Shown: positions 1 through 53,626, numbered from the stretch's first letter. The stretch: 64,000 bases of DNA from Candidatus Poribacteria bacterium (GCA_965198235.1 OZ240248.1:1152001-1216000); one strand, 5' to 3'. Numbers and translations: made by a program. Notes: generated from the letters alone by a model not told the origin.

Positions 1-163
1 TGCTCCTAATTTCTCGTTTTGGGTTAAGTCAACGTACAAGTTTCCATTCCGAGTCGCGACGTGACCAGAAACCTGCTCGGAATGAAATTAGGTTTCCTTA
101 AATGGCATAATTTGTCTTTGCTTTACATTTGGAGAGCAGTCCAGGAACCCATAAATTAAAAAT

Positions 164-520
164 ATGAGACACCTTGCGGTCGTTATCGTTATGATTATTG
201 TGTGGCTCAACGGCTTAATCTGGTTGGGGAAGCAGGTCGACCCGAGTACGAAGTATCAGTCAGAGGTTGAATACAAGTACGCTCGGTACTGCGCAGGATG
301 CCATGGAAACAATGGAGAGGGCAACGGACGTATCGGACGTTTCAAAAAATTGGATCCCGCAGACCTAACGGACAACAACCTTTGGGAGATGCACAGCGAT
401 GAGCAATTGCTGGATAGTATCAATACGGGGAAAGATGATATGCCAGCGTTTTACTATTACCTCAATGATGAGGAACAACGGGAGATACTCGCCTATATTA
501 AGGAGACGTTTCGTCCGTAA
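164..520 (+). CDS. Membrane-anchored monoheme cytochrome c
   Basis: N-terminal hydrophobic helix, CAGCH heme motif, distal MPAF Met ligand. Confidence 0.85.
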   Translation: MRHLAVVIVMIIVWLNGLIWLGKQVDPSTKYQSEVEYKYARYCAGCHGNNGEGNGRIGRFKKLDPADLTDNNLWEMHSDEQLLDSINTGKDDMPAFYYYLNDEEQREILAYIKETFRP

Positions 521-544
521 CTTGAAAACAGATCTTTAAAAATC

Positions 545-691
545 AGATTTCTAACTATGGGTCTCTGAGCTGTGCTCCATTACATTCCGCACAGGTTTCC
601 GGTTCAGTTTAAATCCTTTTCAAACCTTGAGCAGGTTTTTACTTTACTGAAAACCATCGTGGAACGATGCCCAGATTTGATAGTTTAAAAA
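545..691. mobile_element. MITE-like element with two imperfect inverted arms (family B)
   Basis: Left arm TTTCTAACTATGGG...TGCTCCATTACATTCCGC resembles 43905-43960; right arm AAACCATCGTGGAACGATGCCCAGATTTGATAGTTTAAAA resembles 14808-14860. Confidence 0.7.
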
Positions 692-765
692 TTTGTTTGC
701 ATCCTGAAACTTTGGGGTGTTAATATATTGCAGGCTAAATTTAAAGTATAAAGGAGAAACTAATT

Positions 766-1515
766 ATGAAAGTTTTAGTCGCTTTGCTTGTCTTTGGAAT
801 GCTGGCGAGTGTTGCGTTCGCAGGCAACATCACCGGCACCGTAATGTATGAAGGCGACGCACCCGCGCGTCCTGACTTGACAGCAACCAAGGACCAGCAT
901 TGTATTGACGCTGTAGCAGGCACAAAATCCGAGGCACTTGTTGTCTCAAAAGGGAAAGGTCTCAAGAACGTTGTCATTTACGCGCGCGTCCGCGGTGCCA
1001 AAGTTACTGTGCCAGATAAAAATCCCGTCATGGACCAGAAGGGATGCGCTTACTACCCGCACGTTCTCGCGGTTGTTGCCGGTTCTACCATCGATATTAC
1101 CTCCAGCGACCCAGTGGCGCACAACGTCCACTCCCACGCCAAAAAGAATGACGCGATAAACTATCAGATTCCGCAGCCCGGAAAAGCTATCCCACACAAA
1201 GTCGCCAAGGCTGAAGATATTAAGTTCACGTGCGATATCCACGCGTGGATGACCGGCTACATCGTCGCGGTTAATAGCAACTATTTTACGGTCACCGGTT
1301 ACAAAAATGCTGAGGACGGATGGCTCAGTTCAGGTGCGTATGAAAAATCAACGGATCCCGGCAATTATACAATCGCAGATGTGCCTGCTGGTACGGTCCG
1401 TGTCGTTGCATGGCATGAAGAACTCGGTTCAGCAAACAAAAAGGTTGAAGTTCCAGCGAGTGGCGATATTGCTGTAAACTTCACGAGTGCTGACTTTAAG
1501 AAACGCGCCAAGTAA
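766..1515 (+). CDS. Secreted cupredoxin-like / carboxypeptidase-regulatory-like domain protein
   Basis: Signal peptide, DQKGC, HNVH and CDIHAWM (type-1 Cu-like ligands); AAGGAG RBS. Confidence 0.8.
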   Translation: MKVLVALLVFGMLASVAFAGNITGTVMYEGDAPARPDLTATKDQHCIDAVAGTKSEALVVSKGKGLKNVVIYARVRGAKVTVPDKNPVMDQKGCAYYPHVLAVVAGSTIDITSSDPVAHNVHSHAKKNDAINYQIPQPGKAIPHKVAKAEDIKFTCDIHAWMTGYIVAVNSNYFTVTGYKNAEDGWLSSGAYEKSTDPGNYTIADVPAGTVRVVAWHEELGSANKKVEVPASGDIAVNFTSADFKKRAK

Positions 1516-1699
1516 TAGTTCGCAACAAATTCTATTAAAAGCCGCCGCGGGTCGGTGAATACCCGCCTTAATTTACAACAGAAAGAGGCGGCGTTCTTCC
1601 CCAAAGTAGTAGGGTCTTTAAAAGCCACACGCGGCTTTCTCCCTCCGTATGCCGTTCACAATGGATGCCTAAAGTTGGGGTGCCACGCCGGGATTTTTG

Positions 1700-3616
1700 A
1701 TGACGAAAATATCTAAAAAAAGGCTCTATCTCATACTTGGCTGTGTACTTATCGCTTATGCCGTGTTAGCCGTTGCGCCGGTGTTTGCACAGGACGCGAC
1801 CGAGGCTGAATATCGCACCTTCCCAAAGATTGGCAGCCGAAACGCAGCATGGATCGCTGCGCAACTCCACCTGTTATTCGGATCTTTTATTCTCGGTGTC
1901 CCGATGTTCGCCGTTATCATCGAATTTATCGGCTGGAAGACGAAGGACATGCGATACGATCGGATGGCGCAAGAGTTCATTAAACTCTGTATGGGTGCGT
2001 TTTCGACGACAGCCTTACTCGGTGGTGTTCTCGTCTTCATCCTCATCTGGTGTTACCCCAAAGTGATGACGAAGCTCAGTGGGATATTCGGACCGACGAT
2101 GATTTTTTACGTTGTCCTATTCTTCGGGGAAACCTTTACGCTTTACCTTTACTCCTACGGATGGGATAAGATGCAGGGACACCATAAAGGGTGGCATCTT
2201 TTCCTTGGTGTTCTCTTGAATGTGTTCGGCACTGCGATCATGTTCGTTTCTAACTCATGGTTGAGTTACCAAACCAGTCCTGCAACCCAATACGGTGTAC
2301 TATCTGAAGGAAGACGGAAATCTTGGATAGAGGAAAAATTGGCTGCAGATCCAGCACTCACGCCTGAAACCGCTATGGAGGGGGTCACAAGCCATACGAC
2401 AGTGCCGCTCCACAACGAGACAACAGGCGAGTTCATGGGGACCGTTTGGGATGCCGTCAACAATTTTACGTGGATGCCTGTTAATATCCACCGCCTCGTC
2501 GGGAACATCGCTTTCGGAGGATCGATTGTAGCGGCTTATGCCGCGTTCCGATTCCTCGTCGCCAAGACGAAAGAGGACAAAGCACACTACGATTGGATGG
2601 GCTATACTGGAAACTTCATCGCACTCTGCGGACTCATTCCACTGCCTTTCCTCGGCTATTGGCTCGGTAGAGAAATCTACATGTTCAATAACACGATGGG
2701 CATTAACATGATGGGGAGTCTGTTCTCTTGGCTATTTATTATTCAGGCAGTGATGATTGGTGTCCTGTTTATTGGGGCAAACTACTATCTTTGGTCAGGC
2801 ATGGGGCGGATTGAAGGGGCAGAGGTCTATGCGCGCTATCGTCCGTATATGATTACCGTTATCATTATCTGTGTTGCAATCTGGATGACGCCACGGACAC
2901 TCTCTAAGATCTCAAGTGCCAATGAACTGAGCGCGATGGGCGGTGCAAACCACCCACACCTCGGATTGTTCGGCTTGATGACTGCCAAAAATACGGCGGT
3001 TAACATCATTATTCTCACCACTTTCTTGAGTTTCCTATTTTATCGGCGTTCAGGCAAAATACCTACGGCGAGTTGGAAAAAGGTTGGCAATATCGCTATC
3101 TCTTCGGTCTTTTTCCTCGCGACTGTCTCAATTGTCGTTATCGGTATCGTCGGATTTACCGTTCCGACAGATTTACGGGTCAATATCCTTACGCCTTATC
3201 AGGTCCTGGTTGCGCTCGCTGTGATGGCAGTCGTAACAATCGTCGATATTTTTATGTACCGCAAGGCGACAACATCTGGCACCATTAAATGGGGAGAGAT
3301 GACAGATCGCTCACAATATGTGTTAATTCTTGTGGCAATTACGTTTACTTCCTTGATGGGACTGATGGGATACGCGCGCTCAGGGCTTCGAGAGGCGTGG
3401 CATATCTTCGGGGTCATGCAGGATACGTCTGCTGATGCCTTTACCCCGCTTCTCAGTGAGGCAGTGAATATGGTGGCAATCATCATGGTAGTCTTCTTTG
3501 CGCTCGTCGGGTTTATCTTCTGGCTCGGTTTGTGGGGCGAAAAGAAGAAGGAAGAGCCAGCAGCTATCACCGAACCAACTGTTGCTGCGGAAGGTGATTC
3601 AGAAACCCGCTCGTAA
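1700..3616 (+). CDS. Cytochrome bd-like oxidase subunit I (CydA-like, Nitrospira-type)
   Basis: Many TM helices; QLHLLFGSFILGVP, FFGET, NIHRLVGN and GYARSGLREAW align with CydA heme-ligand regions; no cydB nearby. Confidence 0.8.
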   Translation: MTKISKKRLYLILGCVLIAYAVLAVAPVFAQDATEAEYRTFPKIGSRNAAWIAAQLHLLFGSFILGVPMFAVIIEFIGWKTKDMRYDRMAQEFIKLCMGAFSTTALLGGVLVFILIWCYPKVMTKLSGIFGPTMIFYVVLFFGETFTLYLYSYGWDKMQGHHKGWHLFLGVLLNVFGTAIMFVSNSWLSYQTSPATQYGVLSEGRRKSWIEEKLAADPALTPETAMEGVTSHTTVPLHNETTGEFMGTVWDAVNNFTWMPVNIHRLVGNIAFGGSIVAAYAAFRFLVAKTKEDKAHYDWMGYTGNFIALCGLIPLPFLGYWLGREIYMFNNTMGINMMGSLFSWLFIIQAVMIGVLFIGANYYLWSGMGRIEGAEVYARYRPYMITVIIICVAIWMTPRTLSKISSANELSAMGGANHPHLGLFGLMTAKNTAVNIIILTTFLSFLFYRRSGKIPTASWKKVGNIAISSVFFLATVSIVVIGIVGFTVPTDLRVNILTPYQVLVALAVMAVVTIVDIFMYRKATTSGTIKWGEMTDRSQYVLILVAITFTSLMGLMGYARSGLREAWHIFGVMQDTSADAFTPLLSEAVNMVAIIMVVFFALVGFIFWLGLWGEKKKEEPAAITEPTVAAEGDSETRS

Positions 3617-3655
3617 TGAAATGGAGAGCGGAGCGAAAACTTAATAGTTAAAAAT

Positions 3656-5167
3656 ATGTCAAGAAATACACTCATAAAAATTGCGAGTCTAATCCTAATG
3701 GTGGTGAGTTTCATCGCCTATATTGCGGGTGCATCCGCATTTCCGATTGCCTCGGAGAACTTGCTACCGTGGTCGGTCTGGTTTCTGATTTCAGTGATCG
3801 TAAACATCGTTTTGTGGTCGAGCGTCATGAAGTTGTTGACGTTTTCGCTTGCCGTGATATGGTTTTACGCCTTTGTCGCGGGCCTTGTCCCGGAAAGTTC
3901 TACGGCAGTAAACCTGACTGAGCTGGATTGGAGCGACCCAGACGCAGTTGCGGAGCAGGGTGCCTTGGTGTTTAACGGCAAAGGTCAATGTAGCGCGTGT
4001 CATACCGTCGATACCTCCGCACCGAAAGGGAGATGTCCCGATCTTACAGACATCGGCATTAACGCCGCCAGCCGCGTCCCTGGTATGGAGGCAAAAGCCT
4101 ATCTCATTGAATCGCTTTACGAACCCGCCAAATATCTTGTCCCCGGATACGGCAAGATTATGCCAGAGATATGGAAAGCCCCCATCGCGCTCTCTAAATT
4201 AGAGATTGAAGCAGTTATCGCCTATCTCCAGAGTCAAGGCGGCGAAATTGATCCCACTCCGTTTGATGAGCCTATAGACCGCGCAGACACCGCAACCGCC
4301 GCTGCAGCACTTCCACCCCTGCTCACCGGTGACCCAGATATGGGTAAAAAAGTTTTTGTGACTGCCGCATGTATCTCATGCCATGTAGTACAAGGTATAG
4401 AAAGTCCGGCAGCGGGTGAAACCGATACAGATTTTGAAGTCGTCACTGCGCCTGAACTCTCCGAAATAGCTGCGTTTAATGACATGCGCTACCTTGAGGA
4501 GTCAATCCTGAAACCCAGCGCACAAATTGTCAGCGGTTACGGTGCCGTTACCGTCCGTGCCAACGGGACGACCTTGCAAGGAACACTTGTTTCGCAGGAT
4601 ACAGAACAGATTATCGTCCGAACCAAAACAGCCGATGGCGTGGAAGAAGAGCACACCCTCTTGCTGAGCGAGCTTGATGATGAACCGATTGAGGATCTCA
4701 CGAATCTGCAAGCGAACGGCTATTTTACGTTGACACTAACGCCTGTGGATGCGGATACTCCGGTAAGCGGTGAAATCGTTTCGGAAACTGATGACACCGT
4801 GACGCTTAAGGTCGACGGCGAAAATCGGACATTTTCTAAAACAGATGTGAAAAGCCAAATGACCGTTATCACTTTTGATGATGATGAAATTGTTGGCGAA
4901 TACGTTTCAGGCACGATGGACGACGACGAAATCGTTCTAATGGTTGACGGGAGCGAAGAGGTATTTGATACATTTGATTTAAACGAAGCTACTTTTACCC
5001 GTGCCTTTGGCAAAAAGTTGTTCGTTACATCGCCGATGCCCGAAAACTTTCCGATGCTGTTATCGGTATTGGATATGAGTAATTTGCTCTCTTTCTTAAG
5101 CACACTCACTGGGGCAACAGCGGAAGCAGCTTCTGAAGGGGCAGCGGAGGGAACTCCCGCGGAATAA
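3656..5167 (+). CDS. Membrane-bound diheme cytochrome c with large acidic insertion
   Basis: Three N-terminal TM helices, CSACH and CISCH, YLIESLYEP / YLEESILKP motifs. Confidence 0.85.
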   Translation: MSRNTLIKIASLILMVVSFIAYIAGASAFPIASENLLPWSVWFLISVIVNIVLWSSVMKLLTFSLAVIWFYAFVAGLVPESSTAVNLTELDWSDPDAVAEQGALVFNGKGQCSACHTVDTSAPKGRCPDLTDIGINAASRVPGMEAKAYLIESLYEPAKYLVPGYGKIMPEIWKAPIALSKLEIEAVIAYLQSQGGEIDPTPFDEPIDRADTATAAAALPPLLTGDPDMGKKVFVTAACISCHVVQGIESPAAGETDTDFEVVTAPELSEIAAFNDMRYLEESILKPSAQIVSGYGAVTVRANGTTLQGTLVSQDTEQIIVRTKTADGVEEEHTLLLSELDDEPIEDLTNLQANGYFTLTLTPVDADTPVSGEIVSETDDTVTLKVDGENRTFSKTDVKSQMTVITFDDDEIVGEYVSGTMDDDEIVLMVDGSEEVFDTFDLNEATFTRAFGKKLFVTSPMPENFPMLLSVLDMSNLLSFLSTLTGATAEAASEGAAEGTPAE

Positions 5168-5397
5168 CAAATAACGAATCGTGCTACGGTGAACGTAGTC
5201 CCATACCGTCGCTGGCGAGGAGTGCATCCTCGCTCTGTAATGTCCAAGTAAAGGATTTTCTTTTAATTGCTTGAAAAGTTTCAAATCCAGTCTCAAATTA
5301 ACCAAAAGCCTGCCTGAAATGAAATTATGCCTTAAATGGCATAATTTGTCTTTGCTTTACATTTGGAAGGCAGAGCAGAAACTTAATAATTAAAAAC

Positions 5398-6174
5398 ATG
5401 AAAAGACTGTCGCTCTTCACAATATGTCTCATAATTCTGGTTGGTTCTTGGGCACTTCTGCGGTTCTTCGTTGGAGGTGTCGTCTCAGTGCCTATACCGG
5501 GCAGCGTGATTGCGATGTATATGGGGTTGATTATAATCGCTATCTTGGTGCATATCTCCGTTGAGGACTCACTCTTTCGAGAATTTCTGCGCCCCATCCA
5601 TGAAACACTCATCGATGACAATCGCCGTGTCCGCCGCCGTGTTATCGCAGTGTTAATCCCGCTGTTCTTACTCGGTTATACCTATTCGATTATCGCACAA
5701 CGGACGAACCCGCCTGGGAATCCGCGTGATGCCCATCCATCACCACCCCTTGAATTAACCCATAAGGATGAAGTTATCGGCACCATGCAAGAGGTCGAAA
5801 ACCCCTTTCGCCACTATGAAAAGGACGATCCAGAAGCGTTCAAAGCGCACGTTGAAAACGGCAGGCGCGTCTACTACCAGAACTGCTTTTACTGCCATGG
5901 AGATCATTTGGATGGACAGGGGCACTTTGCGACTCACCTCCAACCGATTCCTGCTAATTTCCAAGATCCGGGGATTATCCCTAACTTCCAGGAGTCTTTC
6001 CTGTTCTGGCGAATAGCCAAGGGCGGACCGGGATTACCGGCAGCGGGGACACCTTGGGATTCAGCGATGCCTATCTGGGAGAACTACTTGACAAAAGACG
6101 AAATTTGGGACGTGATTCTCTTTCTATCCGATTACACCGGTTATCAGCCACGAACCTTTGGGGAGGGACACTAA
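5398..6174 (+). CDS. Membrane-bound monoheme cytochrome c
   Basis: Three TM helices, CFYCH, SAMP distal Met. Confidence 0.85.
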   Translation: MKRLSLFTICLIILVGSWALLRFFVGGVVSVPIPGSVIAMYMGLIIIAILVHISVEDSLFREFLRPIHETLIDDNRRVRRRVIAVLIPLFLLGYTYSIIAQRTNPPGNPRDAHPSPPLELTHKDEVIGTMQEVENPFRHYEKDDPEAFKAHVENGRRVYYQNCFYCHGDHLDGQGHFATHLQPIPANFQDPGIIPNFQESFLFWRIAKGGPGLPAAGTPWDSAMPIWENYLTKDEIWDVILFLSDYTGYQPRTFGEGH

Positions 6175-10056: not shown

Positions 10057-10092
10057 AGGAAGGATAGGGAAAATTAAAAGAATCCAAAACTG

Positions 10093-10206
10093 CAAGCCCG
10101 TAACATTGTCCCGCAAGCCTCTATAGGCTTGCACTGGGAGGGCGGATCTACGGAGAGGTAGGTGTATGCTTAACCCACCTCAACGAACCGCAAGGAAAAT
10201 TAAAAA
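10093..10206 (+). repeat. Family A start-site element carrying a nested 26-nt palindrome
   Basis: AGCCCGTAAC...GGAGGGCGGATCTACGGAGAGG...GAACCGCAAGGAAAATTAAAAA; contains the ATG of the permease gene. Confidence 0.8.
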
Positions 10207-10978
10207 TCTGCTCCCGATTGCAACGATATGGTGGCGTGAAATCATCAGGTTTTATCGCCAGCGGAGTCGACTCTTCAGTGCTATCGCACAACCGTTAGTA
10301 TTTTGGTTACTCATCGGGAGCGGCTTGAGTGCCTCTTTTCGACCCTCTGGCACGGCGGATGGACCCAGTTATATCGAATACTTTTATCCCGGTATCGTTG
10401 TTTTAGTCTTGCTTTTTACGTCTATTTTTGCTACAATCTCTGTCGTCAATGACCGACGTGAAGGCTTTTTGCAAGGTGTACTCGTGGCTCCCCTGCCAAG
10501 GTGGCAGATTGTACTCGCACAAGCGTTAGGCGGCACTACGTTAGCACTCTTGCAAGGCGTGCTGATGCTGCTACTCGCACCGATAGTGAGTATTCGACTC
10601 GGCGCGGCATCACTTTTTCTCACATTTGGCGTGATGGCACTTTTAGCGTTCGGCTTGACAAATCTCGGACTGCTCATCGCATGGCGAATGGACTCAACGC
10701 AAGGGTTTCATGCGATTATGAATCTCCTGCTGATTCCGATATGGCTGCTCTCTGGCGCGTTTTTTCCGAGTACGGGCGTACCCAGTTGGTTAGAATGGAC
10801 AATGAAATTTAATCCGTTAACGTATGGGCTCGCCGCTTTTCGGCATAGCCTCTACCTTAACACAGGGGCAGCAGTTGGCGAGGGACCTCCGTGGACACTC
10901 TCGATGCTGATTACCGGTCTGTTTTGTGTTTTGACGTATGTAGGGGCAGCGCTCACCGCGTCTGCACAAGCAAATTAG
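10166..10978 (+). CDS. ABC-2 type permease
   Basis: Six TM helices, DRREGFLQGVLVAP, LSGAFFP, NPLTY. Confidence 0.9.
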   Translation: MLNPPQRTARKIKNLLPIATIWWREIIRFYRQRSRLFSAIAQPLVFWLLIGSGLSASFRPSGTADGPSYIEYFYPGIVVLVLLFTSIFATISVVNDRREGFLQGVLVAPLPRWQIVLAQALGGTTLALLQGVLMLLLAPIVSIRLGAASLFLTFGVMALLAFGLTNLGLLIAWRMDSTQGFHAIMNLLLIPIWLLSGAFFPSTGVPSWLEWTMKFNPLTYGLAAFRHSLYLNTGAAVGEGPPWTLSMLITGLFCVLTYVGAALTASAQAN

Positions 10979-14714: not shown

Positions 14715-14860
14715 GACAAACATAATGCGTTCAACAACGATAGCGTTACCAGGTAATACAGAATCTGTAAGACATCTTTCGTAACCCAGACCCAGTTGAC
14801 TTAATCGGAAACCACCGTGAAACATAGTGGAACGGTGACCAGATTTAATAGTTTAAAAAG

Positions 14861-15787
14861 ATGCGTTCAACAACGATAACGTTACCAGACAATACAGACA
14901 CAGCGAATCCACCGTCGAAGCAGACGGTTTTCGCGCATCGCGCCGCTGATTTTGTCGAACTCGTCAAACCGAGGTTGGTGGTGATGATACTCATTACGAC
15001 CGCCGCCGGTTTCTATCTCGGCGCACAGCAGACCGTAGATTGGCTCAGATGCCTACATACAGTCTTGGGCGCAGGATTAACCGCTGCAGGTGTCTTAGGG
15101 CTCAACCAATACCTTGAGCGCGATGTAGACGCACAGATGAAACGGACGCAGGAGAGACCGCTCCCTGGGGGTAGAATGAATCCACTGACGGCACTTCTTG
15201 TCGGTGCTGCCCTCACAGGCAGTGGAATGCTTTACCTGACGTTTATCGTCAATATGCTGAGTGGTTTTGTCATTTCGCTGATAGTCGTGAGTTATCTCTT
15301 TCTCTATACACCGCTGAAGCGGAAAACCTCACTGTGTACGCTGATCGGTGCAGTGCCGGGTGCGCTCCCGCCTGTCGTCGGATGGGTCGCAGCACGAGGC
15401 GCGCTAACAGGCGAGGCGTGGGTGTTATTTACAATACTCTTTTTGTGGCAGATCCCACACTCTCTTGCAATAGCCTACATCTATCGCGAAGACTACGCAA
15501 ATGCAGGATTCCGTTTGTTGCCGGTCATTCATCCCGATGGGACAAGTACGTGTCGGCAAATAGTGGTTAATTGCGTCGCACTCCTCGGAATAGGCTTGTT
15601 ACCCACGTTGTACAACATTGCGGGTAGCGTCTATTTCTTCACAGCACTGCTGTCAGGCGTGGCGTTTCTGGCAGTCGGTATCTATTTAGCGCGTACACGC
15701 TCCGTGAGAGCCGCACGCTATCTGTTGTATGCATCGCTTCTCTATCTACCGTTGGTATTTGTCACGATGGCGTTGGATAAAATTTAG
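14861..15787 (+). CDS. ctaB: Protoheme IX farnesyltransferase (heme O synthase)
   Basis: LVKPR, ERDVDAQMKRTQERPLPGG, YTPLKRKT, WQIPH. Confidence 0.95.
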   Translation: MRSTTITLPDNTDTANPPSKQTVFAHRAADFVELVKPRLVVMILITTAAGFYLGAQQTVDWLRCLHTVLGAGLTAAGVLGLNQYLERDVDAQMKRTQERPLPGGRMNPLTALLVGAALTGSGMLYLTFIVNMLSGFVISLIVVSYLFLYTPLKRKTSLCTLIGAVPGALPPVVGWVAARGALTGEAWVLFTILFLWQIPHSLAIAYIYREDYANAGFRLLPVIHPDGTSTCRQIVVNCVALLGIGLLPTLYNIAGSVYFFTALLSGVAFLAVGIYLARTRSVRAARYLLYASLLYLPLVFVTMALDKI

Positions 15788-19493: not shown

Positions 19494-19532
19494 AGATATG
19501 GGCTGGCTCCCCTAACCCGAAAGACCGAAACC

Positions 19533-19621
19533 ATAGCCCGTAACGTAGTGGAGGGCGACTCTTGGGGAAGGCGCGTGGAATACGAAACCTACGTTGTTCT
19601 CCCGCAAGGAAAATTAAAAAA
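19533..19621 (+). repeat. Family A start-site element
   Basis: AGCCCGTAACGTAGTGGAGGGCG...CCGCAAGGAAAATTAAAAAA directly before ATG 19622. Confidence 0.8.
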
Positions 19622-21730: not shown

Positions 21731-22011
21731 CTCTCTCCAATCTGGAGTTTCCCATTTTCACAAACGAAGGCTATGTGATAGAAGCAGGACATGAGTTTCT
21801 GGAATATAGTATGGGGAGTTTATCAAAAATAATGCCTTATCAGTCGAATGGTCCTGATAGAGGCGTGTGGACAGATTTTTAAGCTATTAACTCTGGTCAC
21901 CGTTCCACTTCGTTTCACGGTGGTTTTCGGTTAACTCCGAACAGTTATTGTTAAGCGAAAGTGCGCAGCTTGAAACGAAGTGGAAAGCGGATATACGTAA
22001 AGGAACGTTCA

Positions 22012-30903: not shown

Positions 30904-30987
30904 TTTTTAATTTATGGGCTCCTGAGCTGCCCTCCACTGTGGGAGGGGTTTGTAACCCCGATTCTTTCGGGCAGGTTTCTGGTTAAG
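30904..30987 (-). repeat. Family B arm with nested REP, ending at the SDR start codon
   Basis: Reverse strand AACCAGAAACCTGCCC...[REP]...GTGGAGGGCAGCTCAGGAGCCCATAAATTAAAAA-ATG. Confidence 0.75.
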
Positions 30988-31018
30988 TTCATCTAAGCTA
31001 GGATCGTGAACAATTTAT

Positions 31019-42700: not shown

Positions 42701-43905
42701 ATCTCTATGTGATGCAGTGGGATGGCACGGCGATGTCACCACTCTGGCACCGAAAGATGGAGGAAACCCCCGCTCTTCTTACCGCCGAGCTCAATCAAAA
42801 CGGGTTTGACGAGTTTTACGTTAACCTTGAGGACGGTATTTACCGCTTTGAATCCATCTTCGCAACAGATCCAGATGCCATTGATACGCTCAAACCGTGG
42901 AATGTTGAAGCGAGACCCTTGACACAGAAAGCGGTTCACGTTACATGGGATGCCGAGGAGAACGACGAAACAGATGGCGAACAGTCGGGTCAGACGCGCT
43001 ATTTTACTGTCTACCGCGCACAAGGGGAAAAGAAGGAGGCACCCGCATCTGACGCTTATGAAAAGGTGACGGAAAACCTCACCGTCACAAGATTCCTCGA
43101 CAGACGTGTTACCAAGGATAATACCTACTGGTACGCTATCACGACGAAGGACGAAAAAGGTAACGAAACGCAGCGCACCGAGCCCGTTTCTGCTACACCG
43201 AGAGAACCACCGCAGTTGATTGGGGCAACTTATCACCGTCCAGGTAGTGATATAGGTCCGACACAGCCTAAATCTCAGATTCAGACACCTAATGAGGTTT
43301 CTATGGATGGGAATTTCTGGGTCCTCGTTACCTTCGACCGGCGGATGAATCCTGTGATTGGGGACGAGAACCGGTATGTCTTGCGAGCCGAGAAACGGAT
43401 TGGTGGTGTGAGTCCCGTGTCTGCTATCCGTGACCGGATGGGCACACGCGCACTCTTGGCATTTGATACAGATAGTCTTCTTGAGCACTTCGGGCAATCG
43501 CTGACTGATACAACCGATCAATATGAGATTACCGTATCCAACGTAGTCGATATTGATGAAAACCCTATCCGCGCTGCTACGCGTCCACTTGAAATACCAC
43601 TCGGTGTCATCGGAGCAGCGGTGTCGGATCTGACGCAGGTACGGGTCTATCCAAATCCGGTGCGTCCCAACGTTGCTGACAAAGGCACAGTTACTTTCGA
43701 CAGGTTGCCTGTCGGCACACGCATCCAGCTCTTTACCGCAGGCGGTGAGTTGCTTGAAACATTGGATGTAACCGATCAGGATCACAATCGCAAGGAGTGG
43801 TGGCTTACGAGCAATAACACCGCAGACGTATCAACCGGTATCTATATATACGTCCTTGAATTTGATACGATGAAAAAGATAGGAAAAATCGCGGTGATTA
43901 AATAG
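39769..43905 (+). CDS. Secreted S8 subtilisin-like peptidase with FG-GAP-like repeats, FN3-like and C-terminal sorting-like domain
   Basis: IIDSG, HGTHVAG, GTSMASP triad; DFDRDG/DMDGDG repeats; VRVYPNP...GIYIY tail. Confidence 0.92.
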   Translation: MKYLRILFIGILLLSVVCTESAPENLPFAAIASQITPGELLIRLTPDAASDVERLHANAPISILHVQHKVESLHPLFPYLARPSLNPNLKRIYLLRFAPDAPLEDLKAVYEQSPLIEAVEYNYLRPTLADTVVPNDPMYPEQWSLPLMKLPQAWAIEKGDRNVVIAIIDSGIDYRHDDLAPKAWINPGEIPENGLDDDGNGYVDDVYGWDFTDAPNLQAEGDYLEGDNEPIDEKGHGTHVAGIAGAMPDNGIGIAGVAWECPLMAIRAGLSLGGSSRMQDDDSAAAMVYAVDNGASVVNMSWGSERRSFVIQDAIDYAYARGAILVAAAGNSQKPAAIFPAGYRKVIAVASTEQNQQRFYQSNFGASVDIGAPGNVILSTQINNQYRLLTGTSMASPHVAGVAALILAKRPALTHEEVRHILISTADPVYQEDSDAVDERFVGAGTVNAERALFASGALQARILAPETNSGGADSITVVGTAGGYKFHAWQLSYGESTVPIEFTPFTQSSITQKIDETLAVWDTTTVPEGIYTVRLTTTATDGQQMHDQVVLSVDRTPPQIISLTATDTLYGERPLTIFTWATDDVTQNTLYYRRKGSLAPFAPIETTNLGVEHFLFLGLERGTYQFFVEAENTTNLKTREDNGGASYTTDIVAGYISPSGFTEKSLDIPPLHIASVTADFDRDGQLEIVGSPLSSETLDAELQAAILAVYERLPSGRYELAHTLESVEGLSNLEKFVTWTVDDTDNDGLLEILATDDARTFLIESLIPRGYPHQIIWETPFLSGGTIADMDGDGQKEIIGADNNNDRLLIFEYDNATRTYVERAILINESPGSNVFAQRFAINDFDGDGSMELVAADSEGDLFVYESTSIRNTFRLEWQTQLPLKDITQLTAGDLTGDGVPEFVVGGLLSLPDNPSGPLIWKFFVFTHTSRGYALLSDGARNATVAIAPHRRNGNSLAIADLEGDGHNKLVIATYPNLYVMQWDGTAMSPLWHRKMEETPALLTAELNQNGFDEFYVNLEDGIYRFESIFATDPDAIDTLKPWNVEARPLTQKAVHVTWDAEENDETDGEQSGQTRYFTVYRAQGEKKEAPASDAYEKVTENLTVTRFLDRRVTKDNTYWYAITTKDEKGNETQRTEPVSATPREPPQLIGATYHRPGSDIGPTQPKSQIQTPNEVSMDGNFWVLVTFDRRMNPVIGDENRYVLRAEKRIGGVSPVSAIRDRMGTRALLAFDTDSLLEHFGQSLTDTTDQYEITVSNVVDIDENPIRAATRPLEIPLGVIGAAVSDLTQVRVYPNPVRPNVADKGTVTFDRLPVGTRIQLFTAGGELLETLDVTDQDHNRKEWWLTSNNTADVSTGIYIYVLEFDTMKKIGKIAVIK

Positions 43906-44069
43906 TTTTTTAACTATTTAATCTGATCACTGCTCCATTACATTCCGCAGTGGTTTTTGGTTAATTCTAACCCGCTCCAGGTGTTCAAAGAGCTCTTGAT
44001 TTCACCAGAAACCGTTGTGAAACGTAGTGAAACAACGCCCAGGAGCCCATAGTTAAAAAAGTTAAAAAA
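43905..44069. mobile_element. Complete family B MITE-like element filling the intergenic space
   Basis: Left arm TTTTTAACTAT...TGCTCCATTACATTCCGCAGTGGTTT; right arm AAACCGTTGTGAAACGTAGTGAAACAACG...ATAGTTAAAAAA ending just before ATG 44070. Confidence 0.75.
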
Positions 44070-45074
44070 ATGGATAATTTTATTCTCATCGCAAACCCCA
44101 TTTCCGGTAAAGGCAACGCGAAAAACGTTGCTGAACAGGCTTATGCTGCCCTTACCGAATCTGGAGCTCAGGGACAATTGATGTTCACTTCGGCATCCGG
44201 CGATGCCAAACGTTTCGCGCAGGAAGCCATCTCTGATGGAATTCGATCCATGATTGCTTGCGGTGGCGATGGGACGCTCCACGAAGTTGTTAACGGTATC
44301 GAGACGGCTCCAGATGTAACCTTAGGTGTTCTTCCGTGTGGTCGCGGCAACGATTTTGCAGCGGCAATCGGTGTGCCGCTGAAACCTGAAGCCGCAATCG
44401 CAACCCTCTTATCTGGCACCCCTATCCGTGTAGATTTAGGATGTTGCTATCAGAATAGCAGTCAGCAGTCAGTTGTTAATCCAAATGATGTAGCCCGTAA
44501 TGAAATGGAGGGCGGATCTACGGAAAGGTGCTTCAATGTCCAAACCCCACTGACCGAACCGCAAGGAAAAATTAAAAAATATTTCATCACCATTGCCACC
44601 TGCGGTTACGATACGGAAGTGAGTCGCCGTGCGGCGAAAGGAACACCGCTGTTTGCAGGCACTGCCTCCTACGCTTACGCCGCGGTGGAGACACTTTTCT
44701 ACTACGAACCGCCGTTTGTGCGTCTTGAGGGCGACTTCGGTGTCCACGAGGGACCGCTCCTTCTCGCTGCGACAGGCATCACAAATCGATATGGCGGTGG
44801 ATTTCAGATTGTACCGAACGCTCGCGTCGACGATGGGCTTTTCGATGTCTGTATTATCCGACCGGTGTCCTCTCTAACGGTGTTACGGCTCATGGTGACA
44901 CTCTTCTGGGGTGGACATGTTTCGCATCCTGCCGTATCCATGCACCAGACCCGCACTTTAACAATTGAGACCGACACACCCATGCTGTTGTATGCCGATG
45001 GCGAGCCGATGTGCGAAACCCCTGCCACAATTGAGATAATTAAAGAGGGACTCGCTGTAATGGCACCTCGTTGA
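44070..45074 (+). CDS. Diacylglycerol/lipid kinase family protein (YegS/DgkB-like) with in-frame repeat insertion
   Basis: NPISG, GGDGT, GRGNDFA, YGGG, DDGLFD, DGE; extra ~40 aa at 44450-44579. Confidence 0.9.
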   Translation: MDNFILIANPISGKGNAKNVAEQAYAALTESGAQGQLMFTSASGDAKRFAQEAISDGIRSMIACGGDGTLHEVVNGIETAPDVTLGVLPCGRGNDFAAAIGVPLKPEAAIATLLSGTPIRVDLGCCYQNSSQQSVVNPNDVARNEMEGGSTERCFNVQTPLTEPQGKIKKYFITIATCGYDTEVSRRAAKGTPLFAGTASYAYAAVETLFYYEPPFVRLEGDFGVHEGPLLLAATGITNRYGGGFQIVPNARVDDGLFDVCIIRPVSSLTVLRLMVTLFWGGHVSHPAVSMHQTRTLTIETDTPMLLYADGEPMCETPATIEIIKEGLAVMAPR

Positions 45075-49391: not shown

Positions 49392-49463
49392 GCTTTTAAG
49401 TTAGTAATTCTGGAGTTAATAACTTAAAAAATGGAACGATCCTTAGAGGCACATAATTAAAAA

Positions 49464-50978
49464 ATGGGAAGACTTTTTGGAATCGAAACTGAATACGGAA
49501 TAACACTCGAAAATGAAGCGCACATTGATGCCGTCAAGCAGTCAATTGAGCTGGTAAAAAGTTACCGACAAGAAGATTTTCGACCTGTGTGGGACTACCG
49601 CGGCGAGGACCCGTTTCGAGACGAACGCGGCTTTCGGGCGAGCGCGCTTTCCAATCATCCCGATGAGAAGGAAGAGGAAAAGCGCGACCAAAAACGCAAT
49701 ATTAAAGAACGACTCTCTTTTGCTGAAATCAAAAGCGATCACATCCTCGTCAACGGCGCACGGTTCTACAACGATCACGCACATCCAGAGTATTCAACAC
49801 CTGAATGCAGCAGTCTCTTTGACCTTGTCGCACACGATAAAGCCGGCGAACGCATCCTTCAACGGTGTGCCGAAACACGCAGCCAGAAACTCGGAAAACG
49901 CGTGCTTTTATACAAGAATAATACCGATTTCCATGGGCATAGTTACGGTTGCCACGATAACTACCTGATGGCACGCGAAGTACCGTTTGAAACCCTCAAG
50001 CAAGGTATCATGCCGTTCTTTATCACACGCCAGATCTTCGCAGGTGCCGGAAAAATCGGCATTGAAACTGAAGCCGGACTCGCAACGCCAGGACACTACC
50101 AGTTATCTCAACGATCCGATTTCTTTCACGTCGAGGCGAGTGTGGATACCATGCACAATCGTCCTATCGTCAACACGCGAGATGAACCGCACGCTGATGC
50201 ATCTAAATATCGTAGGTTGCACGGCATCGCCGGGGATGCAAATATGTCCGAATACGCCACCGCACTCAAAGTCGGCACGACAGCACTCGTGATTGCCTTG
50301 ATTGAACAGCGGAGGATTCCAGAAAGTTTAGTGCTCGTCAACCCGATTGATACCATCAAAACTGTATCGCATGACCAGACATATCGTTGGATAGTAATGA
50401 CGGCAGAAGGGAAAACGATGTCCGCTATTGACCATCAGCGTGAGTATCTTGCACTCGCACAGAAGCATCTCGGTGAAGCTGTGGGGCTTGAAACCGACTG
50501 GGTGCTCACCGAGTGGGAGGATACCCTCAACGCGCTTGAGACGGACCCAATGTCGCTCACTGATCGGCTTGATTGGGTCGCGAAGAAATGGTTGCTTGAA
50601 ACGTTTGCTGAGGAAGAGGGAGTCGCGTGGGATGACCCGTGGCTCCAAAGTTTGGATTTAGAATATCACAACATCGATCTTGATGAAGGGCTATACTATG
50701 GGATTCCGATGCGGCGTATCGTCACGGACGAACAGATTGATGCTGCGCTCCATAATCCGCCTGCCGACACGCGGGCATACTTCCGGGGGCGCGCTGTAGA
50801 TCGATTCAGTAACTCTATAAAGGCTATCCAGTGGGATAGTATTACCTTTACTGTAAACGGGCGCACCCGCGAAATCAATCTAAATGCCCTCGCAGATGCG
50901 GAGATCGCGCGTCAATATAACGAGGCACTCGATCAATCGCCGACTGTTGAGACGCTCATTGAAAAATTGCCTCTATAA
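49464..50978 (+). CDS. dop: Dop-like depupylase/deamidase (PafA2)
   Basis: GIETEYG, NGARFYNDHAHPEYSTPEC, YKNNTD, GCHDNY, RRLHGI. Confidence 0.85.
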   Translation: MGRLFGIETEYGITLENEAHIDAVKQSIELVKSYRQEDFRPVWDYRGEDPFRDERGFRASALSNHPDEKEEEKRDQKRNIKERLSFAEIKSDHILVNGARFYNDHAHPEYSTPECSSLFDLVAHDKAGERILQRCAETRSQKLGKRVLLYKNNTDFHGHSYGCHDNYLMAREVPFETLKQGIMPFFITRQIFAGAGKIGIETEAGLATPGHYQLSQRSDFFHVEASVDTMHNRPIVNTRDEPHADASKYRRLHGIAGDANMSEYATALKVGTTALVIALIEQRRIPESLVLVNPIDTIKTVSHDQTYRWIVMTAEGKTMSAIDHQREYLALAQKHLGEAVGLETDWVLTEWEDTLNALETDPMSLTDRLDWVAKKWLLETFAEEEGVAWDDPWLQSLDLEYHNIDLDEGLYYGIPMRRIVTDEQIDAALHNPPADTRAYFRGRAVDRFSNSIKAIQWDSITFTVNGRTREINLNALADAEIARQYNEALDQSPTVETLIEKLPL

Positions 50979-50994
50979 AAGAAGGAGATATAGA

Positions 50995-51192
50995 ATGACA
51001 GCCAAGATGATTGCTCAGCTTGAACGGAAGCAAAGAGACACCAAACCCATTGGACCCGGTGATGGCGATGACGATAACGAGGGACCCAAGCGACAGAAAG
51101 TCAGTCGGCCCGATACGCAAGAACTGCTCAAACGGATGCGGCGTGTTGACAAAGATCAGTCCAGACGTTACCGCCAAAGAACGGGGGAGTGA
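50995..51192 (+). CDS. ubact: Ubiquitin-like protein UBact (Pup analog), 65 aa
   Basis: AAGGAG RBS, charged disordered sequence ending YRQRTGE (R[ST]G[EQ] signature), located between dop and prcB. Confidence 0.9.
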   Translation: MTAKMIAQLERKQRDTKPIGPGDGDDDNEGPKRQKVSRPDTQELLKRMRRVDKDQSRRYRQRTGE

Positions 51193-52052
51193 TGAACGAT
51201 AAAGGCGGCTTCCCTAAAGAGTACGGAAAATTTGCGCTACAGGGAGTCATGAACCATAAAGGGGACTTCCTAAACCTTTTAAAACACGCAAACTATCCCT
51301 TGAAAATAGATTTGCCATCGGAAGTTACACAGCGCGGTACTGATATTGAAATAGCACACAGTACGACTGTCGTCGTTGTTCGTTACCGGGACGGAGTCAT
51401 GATCGCGGGTGACCGGCGTGCTACCGCTGGCACTTCTGTCATCTATGATCGGGCGGAGAAAGTTTTGCAGATTGATAAGCATTCTGTACTCGCTATTTCA
51501 GGTTCACCCGCAATCGCTTATGAGATCGCCAGAATATTGGAGCACTCGTTTCAATACTTTCGCCGCAGCCAGCTCCAAGAGTTGAGTCTTGAAGGCAAAC
51601 TCCGAATGCTATCACGGCTCATCCGGGAGAATCTGCCCATGGCACTCCAAGGCATCGGAGGTGTTATTCCGATTTTTGCCCTCTACGATTTGAATGCCCC
51701 TGATGACGAGAATGGTGGAAAAATTTTCTTCTATGATGCACTCGGTGCGCATTTTGAAAACGTAAATTTTGCCACGACCGGTTCCGGCTCCATCTGGATT
51801 CGCGGTGTGTTACGCTATATCTCTCGATTCGGCGATGCGCCTTTGCAAGAAATGGATGAGCGGCAGGCGACTATCACTATCTTACGCCTCTTGGACACCG
51901 CAAGCGAGTACGATGCCGCGACAAGCGGTTACAACGCCAGGGCACAAATTTTTCCAAATGTCAAGATTGTGACACGCACCGGCGTTGAAGATATTTCCGA
52001 TGATGAATTGGAGGCATGTTACGCTGAAGCACAACCGGACGGAGAGGAATAG
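51189..52052 (+). CDS. prcB: 20S proteasome beta subunit (alternative start 51249)
   Basis: HSTTVV processing site, AGDRRAT, TGSGS. Confidence 0.9.
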   Translation: MMNDKGGFPKEYGKFALQGVMNHKGDFLNLLKHANYPLKIDLPSEVTQRGTDIEIAHSTTVVVVRYRDGVMIAGDRRATAGTSVIYDRAEKVLQIDKHSVLAISGSPAIAYEIARILEHSFQYFRRSQLQELSLEGKLRMLSRLIRENLPMALQGIGGVIPIFALYDLNAPDDENGGKIFFYDALGAHFENVNFATTGSGSIWIRGVLRYISRFGDAPLQEMDERQATITILRLLDTASEYDAATSGYNARAQIFPNVKIVTRTGVEDISDDELEACYAEAQPDGEE

Positions 52053-52175
52053 CCGTCAGCATATTGGCCGTCAGCAGTCGGCGGATGGTGGTTGGCAGTC
52101 GGTAGCCGGCGGATGGCAGTCGGTTCAGAAGTTTTCGCCTAACAAGGGGTTTCTCTTAAGATAACCTCAAAACCT

Positions 52176-52500
52176 GTAGCCTGTAATGAAATGGAAGGCG
52201 GATTTAAGAAAGGCAGCCGATAGTTCAAACCCGCGACGTTTGACCGCAAGGAATAATTAAAGAATGCGAGATGAACCGTATCACGTAGCTCGTAATGAAA
52301 TGGAGAGCGGATTTCAGAACGGGATGTCAAAGTTCAAACCCGCGACGTTTAACCGCAAGGAATAATTAAAGAATGCGAGATGAACCGTATCACGTAGCTC
52401 GTAATGAAATGGAGAGCGGATTTCAGAACGGGATGTCAAAGTTCAAACCCGCGACGTTTAACCGCAAGGAATAATTAAAAAATGCGAGATGAACCGTATC
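52176..52500 (+). repeat. Three tandem 109-bp units: family A element plus the first 19 nt of prcA
   Basis: Units start with GTAGC at 52176, 52285, 52394; ATGCGAGATGAACCGTATC at 52264, 52373, 52482. Confidence 0.92.
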
Positions 52501-53252
52501 GCTGGATAGAAGCGATTCAGGACCGACGAGATTACATTGAAGACCAGCTCCGCGTCGGGAGCCCTGTTGTAGGACTTACCTATAACGAAGGCGTGGTGCT
52601 ACTCACTATTGGTAGAGGACAACGCAAAATTTTTGAGGTGCATGACCGAATCGCGCTCTCCGCAATCGGACACCCTGCCGATATTGAACGTCTCCGAATG
52701 CTTGTTACCGACACCGCCAGCGTCCAAGGTTTTCAAAATGCTACCGAAGATGTAAACCTACACCGACTCACGAACTTTGTTTTAGCACATACCTTCAAAC
52801 AGGCGTTTGAGTCCATTGTTGGTGAAGCGTATATCATTAAAATGTTGCTCGCCGAACTCGGCAGCACTGATGATAAAAGTCGTTTTACCTGTATCAACTA
52901 CGACGGTAATGTCCGGACAGACATAACCTCTACTGTTATCGGCGGTACAGAAGCAATCGAGACGGGAATGCAAAACTATCTCACGACTACTTCTACAGGT
53001 ACCGACAGAGATTTAACCGCTGCACTTCAGTTGGGTTTAGAAGCGTGGGCAGTTGGTAAGGAATTGAGTTCACGAGAACCGGAGGAAGCTGAATCGGAGG
53101 AAACCCAGATAGATACTGCGCAGATGCACGAAATTATTAATGCTGCACGGGAAGACGGTGAGATTGAAGCAGGGGTTTTGGAAACCATGCAGCGCGGTGC
53201 AAGTAAGTTTCGTCTGTTAACCTCTCAGGAAATTGAAACTGCCCTCCCGTAA
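52482..53252 (+). CDS. prcA: 20S proteasome alpha subunit
   Basis: EPYRW...DRRDY, GSPVV, RKIFEVHDRI. Confidence 0.88.
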   Translation: MRDEPYRWIEAIQDRRDYIEDQLRVGSPVVGLTYNEGVVLLTIGRGQRKIFEVHDRIALSAIGHPADIERLRMLVTDTASVQGFQNATEDVNLHRLTNFVLAHTFKQAFESIVGEAYIIKMLLAELGSTDDKSRFTCINYDGNVRTDITSTVIGGTEAIETGMQNYLTTTSTGTDRDLTAALQLGLEAWAVGKELSSREPEEAESEETQIDTAQMHEIINAAREDGEIEAGVLETMQRGASKFRLLTSQEIETALP

Positions 53253-53626
53253 TTTCTCTACTGACACGCTTTGTAAATGCCCATTCGCAAAATTCAACTT
53301 TCTAACTATGGGAATCTGTTAACCATCGAAGAAACACCCAAGCAAAAACACTTGTGTTTTAACATCTATAATGGAGTCGAGTTGATGGTTAAACTGCTCT
53401 ACTACGTTCCTTGCCCCTCCCAGTAACGGGCGGGGACCCCGGTTTTCGGTGAATTCCAACCCGCTCCAGATGCGCAAAGGTTTCTGATTTCACCAGGAAC
53501 CATCGTGAAACGAAATTAGGTTTCCTTAAATGGCATAATTTTGCTTCGCAGTGTCCCGCAAGCCTCTATAGGCTTGCGCAGAATGCTTTACATTTGGAAC
53601 GATGCCCAGGGGCTTATAAATTAAAA

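Follow-up and report, generated by a model that had tools for sequence, protein, structure and literature searches.

Repeat copies and genes in the window

The DNA analysed here (the window) is a 64,000-nucleotide stretch of the 5.17-Mb genome of a Candidatus Poribacteria bacterium, a sponge symbiont. Along it lie copies of a repeat with two related architectures, A and B, delineated by iterated nhmmer searches. The copies are listed by coordinates and strand, with the source of evidence in brackets where one applies.

58..165, plus: A, long form with an apex insertion of ~45 nt; tail flush with ATG 164 of a cytochrome c gene (nhmmer, sequence, Pfam)
540..611, minus: A, antisense to the flanking genes; head-to-head partner of 641..696 (nhmmer)
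641..696, plus: A, sense, not flush with a start (nhmmer)
3599..3660, plus: short A/B mosaic; tail flush with ATG 3656 (nhmmer, sequence)
5294..5402, plus: A, long form; tail 1 nt before ATG 5398 of a cytochrome c gene (nhmmer, sequence, Pfam)
10084..10210, plus: B with a nested insertion; no ATG after the tail (nhmmer)
14797..14862, plus: A; tail 1 nt before ATG 14861 of a UbiA-family gene (sequence, Pfam)
19524..19626, plus: B flush with ATG 19622 of a Usp-domain gene (nhmmer)
21871..21940, minus: A; head-to-head partner of the B copy at 21956..22054 (nhmmer)
21956..22054, plus: B; no ATG after the tail (nhmmer)
24229..24336, plus: B; tail 1 nt before ATG 24332 (nhmmer, Pfam)
30897..30991, minus: A whose apex insertion differs, flush with the minus-strand ATG 30903 of an SDR gene (nhmmer, Pfam)
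43902..43970, minus: left half of a head-to-head A doublet; T-run directly 3' of the stop codon of gene 39769..43905
43996..44069, plus: right half of the A doublet, with a duplicated tail, flush with ATG 44070
44482..44581, plus: B, in frame within CDS 44070..45074, in the DAGK_cat–YegS_C interdomain linker (nhmmer, Pfam)
49430..49469, plus: 5'-truncated A (3' arm and tail) flush with ATG 49464 of a Pup-ligase homologue (nhmmer)
52165..52485, plus: B, three tandem copies repeating every ~109 nt (nhmmer, sequence)
53483..53628, plus: A, long form with nested insertions, flush with ATG 53627 of a Pup-ligase homologue (nhmmer, Pfam)
55066..55133, minus: A, antisense; tail abuts the stop of gene 53627..55069 at distance 0 (nhmmer)

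A first-pass annotation of this DNA had placed the 3' tail of the repeat on 11 start codons. The TTAAAA(A) tail ends 0–1 nt before the ATG at all 11, and a Pfam scan covering 10 of the 11 ORFs (all but 52482) showed 10/10 to be real genes, encoding cytochromes c, UbiA, Usp, SDR and lipid kinase proteins and two Pup-ligase homologues. Several copies had been missed, some of them antisense (540..611, 21871..21940, 43902..43970 and 55066..55133) and others undocked or in frame (641..696, 10084..10210, 21956..22054 and 44482..44581).

The apex of the copy at 3599..3660 contains the TAA (3614..3616) that terminates ORF 1697..3616, as had been proposed for the segment 3607..3616; relatives without this fusion end the upstream gene about two codons earlier. 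Within 52165..52485 the first codons of the gene follow each B copy, and the full ORF, at 52482, begins only after the last. The tail of the antisense copy at 540..611 faces the stop of gene 164..520 at a distance of ~20 nt, and ATG 766, ~70 nt downstream of the copy at 641..696, retains its own Shine-Dalgarno (SD) sequence. Both copies are missing from that spacer in congeners G018 and G014. Sites orthologous to 14797..14862 carry A, B or nothing, and at the 19622 site the spacer of the nearest relative, G174, is 34 nt long and unrelated. The doublet at 44070 is present in this genome (G000) and in G156, and a clean empty site, consisting of an overlapping stop and start with no insert, is found in G174, G140, G018 and G170. 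The relatives' alignments break at the in-frame B copy within the same gene.

Family structure and position relative to coding sequences

Genome-wide, nhmmer matched 440 A and 242 B copies (E<1e-4), of which 409 and 224, respectively, could be anchored at the tail and were used in the docking counts. The copies carry no genes, and the earlier description of a dispersed, apparently non-autonomous family is supported. A and B are mosaic architectures that have in common a covarying hairpin, the apex GWAAYGNARTGGA and an A-rich tail, the last being a short fixed motif and not variable poly-A. The hairpin is present in all copies; a GTAG foot 5' of the stem occurs in B only, and the A foot differs. 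A is ~70 nt long, and its copies frequently pair head-to-head into doublets of about 156 nt that resemble a REPIN or a MITE with long inverted ends; B is ~95 nt long, unidirectional and non-palindromic. The covariation claimed for the stem is borne out by compensatory pair types in 390 unique A copies (own scripts), where 5/5 pairs show at least four pair types and pairing is 93–97%. The stem sequences group into about 10 main haplotypes, a pattern that descent from master copies would produce. Dispersed copies have a median nearest-copy identity of 92% (A) and 88% (B), and 100% identical pairs occur only in the C1/C2 assembly duplicate; because dispersed copies are not near-identical, current mobility is unproven.

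Neighbouring copies no more than 400 nt apart are head-to-head in 133 cases, tandem in 36 and tail-to-tail in 6. Head-to-head doublets account for many copies (25th percentile of doublet length 156 nt, median about 190 nt). The halves of A doublets are inverted to each other with the tails outward, forming terminal inverted repeats.

Copies scored as start-docked were those with an ATG, in frame with a called gene, no more than 2 nt off the modal offset. By this measure 120/409 A and 101/224 B copies are start-docked, where random placement at 200,000 intergenic positions gives 0.63% (binomial p ≤ about 1e-158), all docking counts being approximate because the gene calls came from our own crude, home-made codon-usage caller. 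The massive enrichment of 3' ends at starts over random intergenic placement confirms that docking at starts is real and far beyond chance. The original formulation, that the repeat docks on start codons, captured only half of the pattern, since the same end abuts stop codons when the copy is inverted: antisense copies abut or supply a stop in 119/409 (A) and 29/224 (B) cases versus 3.0% expected. Stop-codon docking is new relative to the earlier finding. About 40% of copies are flush with no called gene end. A codirectional upstream gene precedes 93.7% of 191 start-docked genes versus 78% of other genes, and where a stop-docked gene has a codirectional downstream neighbour, that neighbour is itself start-docked in 43/127 cases versus a background of 4.7%.

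Several of these properties would suit a domesticated intercistronic control module, the apex of which would bind a host protein or ribonuclease and which would punctuate polycistronic mRNA, being kept for processing, stabilisation and independent re-initiation, with spread by recombination secondary. Conservation of the 13-nt apex is high, with the closing pair intact at 315 of 321 sites (C-G 185, T-A 130, mismatch 6); compensatory changes keep the stems paired, docked genes are operon-internal at the frequency given above, and copies that are old (about 90% identical) are nonetheless structurally intact. We consider this explanation unlikely, given that ~30% of A copies run antisense to the transcript, so that the RNA would carry the complementary apex, that the few stem haplotypes are those expected of master copies, that some congeners manage with just 5–15 apex motifs, and that the same start codon holds A, B or nothing in close relatives.

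The distance from the tail to the ATG forms a spike at 0–1 nt and not a decay curve, and the A-run merges directly into the TG of the start codon in 82/120 docked A and 57/101 docked B copies. Such flushness could be the product of mechanism and not of selection if a putative recombinase or nuclease inserted or swapped the element beside stops and beside A-runs or ATGs. The spacer at 49464, independently filled by three element types that are all flush with TAG and ATG, argues for this, as do the tandem duplicated tails adjoining the ATG and the retention of B 3' ends, 236/242 of which reach at least model position 120 while many copies begin late in the model. Dedicated boundary targeting is nevertheless rather improbable: free copies showed no conserved flank, empty sites share no target beyond frequent A-richness, no linked candidate enzyme emerged from the searches described below, and no target-site duplication was visible in 80 doublet flanks, the homopolymer ends of which leave duplications of 1–3 nt undecidable.

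In 3305 genes without an element, the SD peaks 6–9 nt from the ATG, and the 16S rRNA carries the canonical anti-SD sequence. Among 271 genes covered by an element, the AGGA maximum lies 11 nt and the GGAG maximum 14–16 nt from the ATG; an A-run follows, with positions -5 to -2 about 80% A. These distributions bear out the proposal that docked genes lack the normally spaced SD that the rest of the genome uses. In 4/5 folded examples, the predicted centroid structure leaves both the A-run and the ATG unpaired. For sense copies plus starts, MFE z-scores run from -1.3 to +0.5 and do not stand out. The region is covered by metatranscriptome contigs, which cannot resolve RNA ends and may reflect DNA carry-over. 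At 14–16 nt from the start codon, an SD-like motif would not be expected to act as an SD, so that a function in initiation is one that we infer: the tail probably drives initiation through A/U-rich, S1-type recruitment. The hairpin may insulate or stabilise the message.

Turnover among relatives and searches for mobility enzymes

G000 has 324 occurrences of the apex motif, and 64/64 congeners have between 5 and 356 (a ~70-fold spread); in 111 searched genomes of other genera in the phylum the motif is at control level. Its amplification is confined to this genus. Congeners differ in occupancy at every site examined. Orthologous start codons carry A, B, tail only or nothing, and 80 records at identical ATGs comprise 6 A, 4 B and 70 other. 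In G006, one A copy lies in frame just 3' of an ATG.

The filled, empty and differently filled orthologous sites found in relatives, a comparison that the first-pass annotation had advised, rule out a cis-regulatory RNA leader that is fixed and passed on vertically, such as a known Rfam motif occupying the same positions in every relative. The structured 5' leader position and covarying stem are what such an RNA would display, but the differing occupancy contradicts it, copy number varies too widely within the genus, and the docked genes are functionally unrelated. Nor did an Rfam cmscan at E≤10 over window positions 1–6000 and 14000–54000 (46 kb, 21 copies) return a relevant match; at gathering scores, only tRNA and LSU rRNA matched among 4227 families. 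We assign this explanation almost no likelihood.

Several filled sites look like replacement of the native spacer and not simple insertion, which counts against a mobile repeat because no ordinary transposition model predicts it. Searches for a transposase, nuclease or reverse transcriptase linked to the family found none. The genome has six Y1_Tnp (PF01797) genes, three of IS200/IS605 type and three RAYT-like; the apex motif is absent from 5/6 of these loci and present only at the far edges of the sixth, and the RAYT-like genes are flanked by a different palindrome family. The suggested link to HUH (RAYT) transposases was thus not borne out. The apex motif was found within 1.5 kb of 0/4 GIY-YIG loci. 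As candidate autonomous parents, 109 inverted pairs 0.4–5 kb apart in this genome were inspected and enclose ordinary, differing genes.

The A-rich 3' end, together with the 5'-truncated and tail-only copies adjoining ATGs, would be expected of a retroposon-like element whose 3' end primes target-primed reverse transcription at T-runs. With a tail of fixed sequence in place of variable poly-A, and 0 matches to reverse transcriptase (PF00078, RVT_1) in G000 or the high-copy genomes G018, G159, G014, G006 and G140, this origin is very improbable.

Comparison with known repeats and interpretation

Of the repeats described in print, Neisseria REP2, as reviewed by Delihas (2011, PMC3184786), comes closest. 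REP2 (CREN) and Borrelia plasmid IR sequences are dispersed repeats immediately upstream of ORFs that carry a ribosome-binding site (RBS), end at the ATG, contain internal stem-loops and have no coding capacity; REP2 is reported to number in the tens, to carry a promoter, to lack terminal inverted repeats and to lie upstream of 14 co-regulated genes (PMC3184786). The same text mentions Correia/NEMIS elements (PMC3184786). Compared by description only, the Poribacteria repeat likewise ends at the start codon and carries a putative RBS. It differs from REP2, as described there, in its roughly 680 copies, mostly within operons, in that about a third of copies are inverted onto stops, in its common head-to-head doublets and in displacing the normally spaced SD of docked genes.

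REP/BIME and REPIN sequences are short extragenic palindromes with conserved non-palindromic feet, mobilised by RAYT (Y1 HUH) transposases, and form lineage-specific families of hundreds of copies with inverted doublets of fixed polarity and covarying stems. The Poribacteria family resembles them in its fixed-polarity inverted doublets, hundreds of copies, lineage restriction and covarying stems, and partly in its feet, GTAG being confined to B, but the RAYT-like genes of its genome are accompanied by another palindrome family. REPs are not known to lie flush with start and stop codons or to provide initiation regions. Correia/NEMIS and similar MITEs are non-autonomous elements with inverted ends that are co-transcribed with neighbouring genes and affect expression signals, and the present family probably shares these features; unlike them, it shows no TSD in the doublet flanks examined, no parent IS turned up among the inverted pairs of this genome, both single halves and the non-palindromic B form are common, and insertion resembles spacer replacement.

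Ssn is a GIY-YIG ssDNA nuclease associated with NTS/SRM hairpin repeats, by which ssn is typically flanked, according to Chenal et al. (2025, PMC11893778). In that account, hundreds of oriented hairpin repeats gather around genes and related species differ sharply in copy number (PMC11893778); both points hold for our family. The four GIY-YIG loci of this genome have no apex motif within 1.5 kb, and by eye the motif sequences of the two systems are unrelated. Rickettsia palindromic elements are known for copies in frame within protein-coding genes, like the copy at 44482..44581 and the one in G006; in-frame copies are exceptional in the Poribacteria family, which is overwhelmingly intergenic.

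The explanation that we favour, and hold to be moderately likely, is a genus-restricted, gene-less, non-autonomous REPIN/MITE-like hairpin repeat acting as a portable initiation region. The family would have multiplied in one subclade, mostly within operon spacers, with the element replacing the native spacer right up to the adjoining coding sequences. In a sense copy, the distal AGGA/GGAG and the A-run leading into the ATG would become the translation-initiation region of the downstream gene, in place of the normally spaced SD; in an antisense copy, the T-run/TAA end lies on or supplies the stop of the upstream gene. The elements probably are, or were, mobile. More speculatively, and with little probability in our estimation, the mechanism recognises coding-sequence ends or replaces whole spacers, making this a genome-wide system of exchangeable gene-boundary cassettes in the clade.

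If such cassettes exist, initiation would have been rewritten from SD-led to A-rich-leader-led, and termination contexts with it, in 5–8% of genes. If the tail drives initiation, the repeat would constitute a natural experiment in one bacterial clade, having swapped the RBS region of roughly 200–270 unrelated genes, respiratory cytochrome and Pup-proteasome genes among them, with sister species retaining a classic SD at the same codons. Matched filled and empty alleles could then be used to test how SD-independent A-rich leaders work and how translational coupling in operons is broken and rebuilt. Flush placement at starts and stops with no recognisable transposase or TSD lies outside standard transposition models and may point to an undescribed recombination route. 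A practical consequence is that, in Poribacteria genomes, the repeats break assemblies and lead gene-start prediction astray.

Two architectures with a common hairpin

Six copies from the window were used to seed nhmmer, giving 278 merged hits, and three rounds of iteration converged on two profiles, designated A and B. Architecture A accounts for 440 nhmmer hits and architecture B for 242 (E<1e-4), with an overlap of only 2 hits. A spans ~70 nt and consists of a conserved head, a 6-bp stem and a 13-nt apex (GWAAYGNARTGGA), followed by a GGAG-like sequence and an A-rich tail. B spans ~95 nt and consists of a GTAG foot, the hairpin of A on a 4-bp stem, a variable central part and a tail in which CCGCAAGG is followed by A/T and an A-run. 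In some copies the apex triloop is replaced by insertions of 45–90 nt, and others contain a small extra insert in the 3' arm. The genome (5.17 Mb, 48% G+C) is in two contigs, C1 and C2, and the window is C1:1152001-1216000. A and B together account for 55.4 kb, equal to 1.08% of C1 or 6.2% of the non-coding bases in it. C2 (43.9 kb) exactly duplicates a C1 segment at ~798,000–811,000, including five element copies at 100% identity; the probable cause is duplication during assembly or a recent duplication of a large segment.

All five pairs of the A stem occur as at least 4 pair types with 93–97% pairing (390 unique copies), and the three pairs of the B stem behave alike. Among 321 sites, the GNA triloop is closed by C-G in 185 cases, by T-A in 130 and by a mismatch in 6. 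The stems group into about ten main haplotypes, with numerous minor ones besides (121 arm pairs), so that subfamily structure accounts for much of this covariation. The covariation is consistent with a hairpin required in DNA or in RNA and does not choose between them; d(GNA) mini-hairpins are stable. RNAalifold on B returned no supported helix besides the shared hairpin and a 2-bp CG pair. The strict apex is absent within 110 nt of 101 of 171 B-type tails, but one B subfamily has another hairpin and confounds this count. Dispersed copies are ~88–92% identical to their nearest copy, and near-identity is limited to local tandem duplicates and the C1/C2 assembly duplicate. The family therefore looks like an older expansion with continuing reshuffling and no current burst.

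Elements flush with start codons

The first-pass annotation, made from sequence alone, had placed the tail of the element against the start codons of 11 genes between window positions 164 and 53627. The A-rich tail ends 0–1 nt before the ATG at 11 of 11 of these sites, and Pfam domains are clear in the 10 ORFs scanned (cytochromes c, UbiA, Usp, SDR, a lipid kinase and two Pup-ligase homologues). The annotation also had the element supplying the stop of an upstream gene, and the stop codon of ORF 1697-3616 indeed lies within an element apex. Orthologues of this ORF stop about two codons earlier, so its fusion with the element is a local deletion joining the two.

Docking at starts was then scored genome-wide against crude codon-usage gene calls (4126 genes, 85% of the genome). 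The first ATG falls at one modal offset from a fixed model column, and a copy was counted as start-docked if its ATG lay no more than 2 nt from that mode and in frame with a called gene. By this measure 120/409 anchored A copies and 101/224 B copies are start-docked, compared with 0.63% of 200,000 random intergenic positions, confirming that element 3' ends are enriched at starts across the genome. GTG or TTG occupies the docking position in ~13 to 14 further copies per family. The A-run continues directly into the TG of the start in 82 of the 120 docked A copies and 57 of the 101 docked B copies, and almost all others have one additional base. The gene upstream of a start-docked gene is codirectional in 93.7% of cases. 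At window 52165-52485, a 109-nt unit comprising a B copy and the first ~20 nt of gene 52482 is repeated three times in tandem, generating two short decoy ORFs before the real start.

Initiation signals upstream of ATG genes with and without an element
Genes without an element within 40 nt (n=3305 ATG genes): GGAG/AGGA/GAGG peak at 6–9 nt; A-run of 4+ within 2 nt of the ATG in 11.5%
Element-covered genes (n=271 ATG genes): AGGA peak at 11 nt (B), GGAG/GAGG at 14–16 nt (A); A-run of 4+ within 2 nt of the ATG in 70%

A normally spaced Shine-Dalgarno sequence is missing from docked genes, as had been noted for the window: the motif is shifted to 11–16 nt in the 271 covered genes, versus 6–9 nt in the 3305 others, and positions -5 to -2 of covered genes are ~80% A. 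The 3' end of the 16S rRNA carries the canonical anti-SD sequence. The only 16S gene (C1:1250147-1251696) lies ~34 kb past the end of the window, in which a tRNA-Ala and a 23S rRNA gene are present at 62851-64000; the rRNA genes are thus unlinked. The conserved hairpin forms in minimum-energy folds, and the centroid leaves the A-run and ATG unpaired in 4 of 5 examples; fold z-scores are unremarkable except for an antisense half at -5.4. We infer that the tail works as the initiation region of the downstream gene.

Four metatranscriptome runs from one sponge study, available as contigs, recover as much as 80% of the words sampled from window 1-9000. Over window 1-20000, contigs occupy all 30 bins in every run but the fourth, which has 29; DNA carry-over may contribute to this coverage. 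The contigs mostly stop or cross-join at element copies, as assemblies do at repeats, and do not allow strand, RNA ends or expression level to be read.

Stop-codon docking and inverted doublets

Elements also dock on stop codons and form doublets, which is beyond what the first-pass annotation covered. Among 247 undocked intergenic A copies, 136 are antisense between two codirectional genes, with a median distance of -4 nt from the upstream-gene stop to the hit. Tails lie between -25 and +12 nt of a converging gene's stop in 119/409 A and 29/224 B copies (expected 3.0%), and 51 A copies supply the stop themselves, as the TAA within their tail. Neighbouring copies are arranged head-to-head in 133 cases, in tandem in 36 and tail-to-tail in 6, and heads are separated by a median of 31 nt. 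Many doublets are 155–157 nt long, and the doublet is a repeated unit in its own right: the 155-nt doublet at 43906-44061 matches another in the same genome (85% identity) as well as doublets in three other genomes. Where a stop-docked gene has a codirectional downstream neighbour, that neighbour is start-docked in 43/127 cases, against a background of 4.7%. Many operon spacers are thus made up of a stop codon, an inverted element, a short centre, an element and an ATG. Docking of one gene at both its start and its stop is only in mild excess (17 vs 6.8 expected), and gene bracketing was rejected.

Occupancy among congeners and possible origin

The apex motif occurs 324 times in this genome and 5 to 356 times in each of 64/64 congeners (reversed-pattern controls, 0–9). 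In 111 searched genomes from elsewhere in the phylum (other genera, families and classes) it is at or near control level. The high-copy genomes are those nearest to this one by DNA identity, indicating that the expansion is a subclade feature. Synteny with eight congeners is kept across the window; a cargo-cassette model was dropped because gene order is the same in filled and empty genomes.

Occupancy differs among relatives at the same ATGs. Across 19 orthologues, the sequence before the ATG at 3656 is A (in a short, standard, truncated or insertion-bearing form), B, a lone tail or something unrelated; every variant ends at the same ATG, and the N-terminal codons are the same. A site-by-genome table contains the same variety at 14861, 19622, 30903, 49464, 52482 and 53627, including A-to-B differences from the nearest relative, G174. 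None of these fills occurs in congener G016, whose genome has 14 apex motifs and which carries ordinary GGAG-type sites. At 44070, stop and start codons overlap in G174 and three further congeners (G140, G018, G170), and a doublet lies between the TAG stop and the ATG in this genome and in congener G156. A precedes the Pup-ligase start in 6 of 80 Poribacteria records and B in 4. The remaining 70 have different sequence there, including further repeat types and, outside the genus, a spacer of 12 nt. In several cases the fill is a replacement rather than a simple insertion, with the native spacer gone and at times the last codons of the upstream gene as well. A known cis-regulatory RNA fixed at the same sites is contradicted by the switching occupancy, and Rfam gave no relevant match at E<=10 over window 1-6000 and 14000-54000.

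These observations moderately favour a non-autonomous, REPIN/MITE-like repeat family. It would have colonised operon spacers, where a sense copy would act as a portable initiation region and a reversed copy as a stop context. The main alternative is a domesticated module for processing or translation that a host factor recognises. It fits the conserved apex, but the antisense orientation of a third of A copies and the existence of congeners without the family weaken it. The flush placement could reflect a targeting or spacer-replacement mechanism, though this seems improbable, or strong filtering of events that leave both neighbouring genes expressed. The closest systems found in print are Neisseria REP2 and Borrelia IR sequences, described as repeats that place an RBS and an ATG directly in front of genes (PMC3184786); the Poribacteria family differs in scale, inverted doublets, stop-codon docking and operon-internal position. 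The literature searches, judged from titles and abstract openings, turned up no description of this family in Poribacteria and no paper on 'Poribacteria-1'.

The suggested link to HUH (RAYT) transposases did not hold. The genome has six Y1_Tnp genes, and the apex motif is missing at five of the six loci. Three adjoin 370–375-aa ORFs, which we take to be an IS200/IS605-like arrangement. Copies of a distinct GC-rich palindrome family, unrelated to A or B, lie on either side of each of the three RAYT-like genes of ~160 aa (C1 ~606795-607286, 1898763-1899242 and 3853634-3854113; loci L025-L027), in what looks like a classic REP/RAYT arrangement. The other flanking palindrome and the five loci without the apex speak against these enzymes as mobiliser. 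A GIY-YIG/Ssn link was likewise discarded, the apex being absent at all four GIY-YIG loci; the small GIY-YIG ORF adjoins a 445-aa ORF. There was no RVT_1 match in this genome or several high-copy congeners, nothing recurrent between inverted copies that might be an autonomous parent, and no clear target-site duplication; a TTAA duplication was abandoned because the 5' side is often TTCA.

Elements also occur within reading frames. A B copy at window 44482-44581 lies in frame in the lipid-kinase gene 44070-45074, in the linker between its two Pfam domains, and is translated without a stop; the linker is shorter and different in more distant congeners. At the orthologue of the window 5515/6237 junction in congener G006 (locus L034), an antisense A copy stands in frame immediately behind codon 2 of the downstream gene and lengthens its N-terminal region. 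Orthologues of the spacer 47571-49464 (loci L072-L151; congeners G016, G018 and G014) contain other repeat types, namely heptamer arrays of the CCGACAA/CTGACAA kind just 5' of ATGs and a palindromic element built around a GCAAAGAG core, so A and B are not the only families to have invaded spacers.
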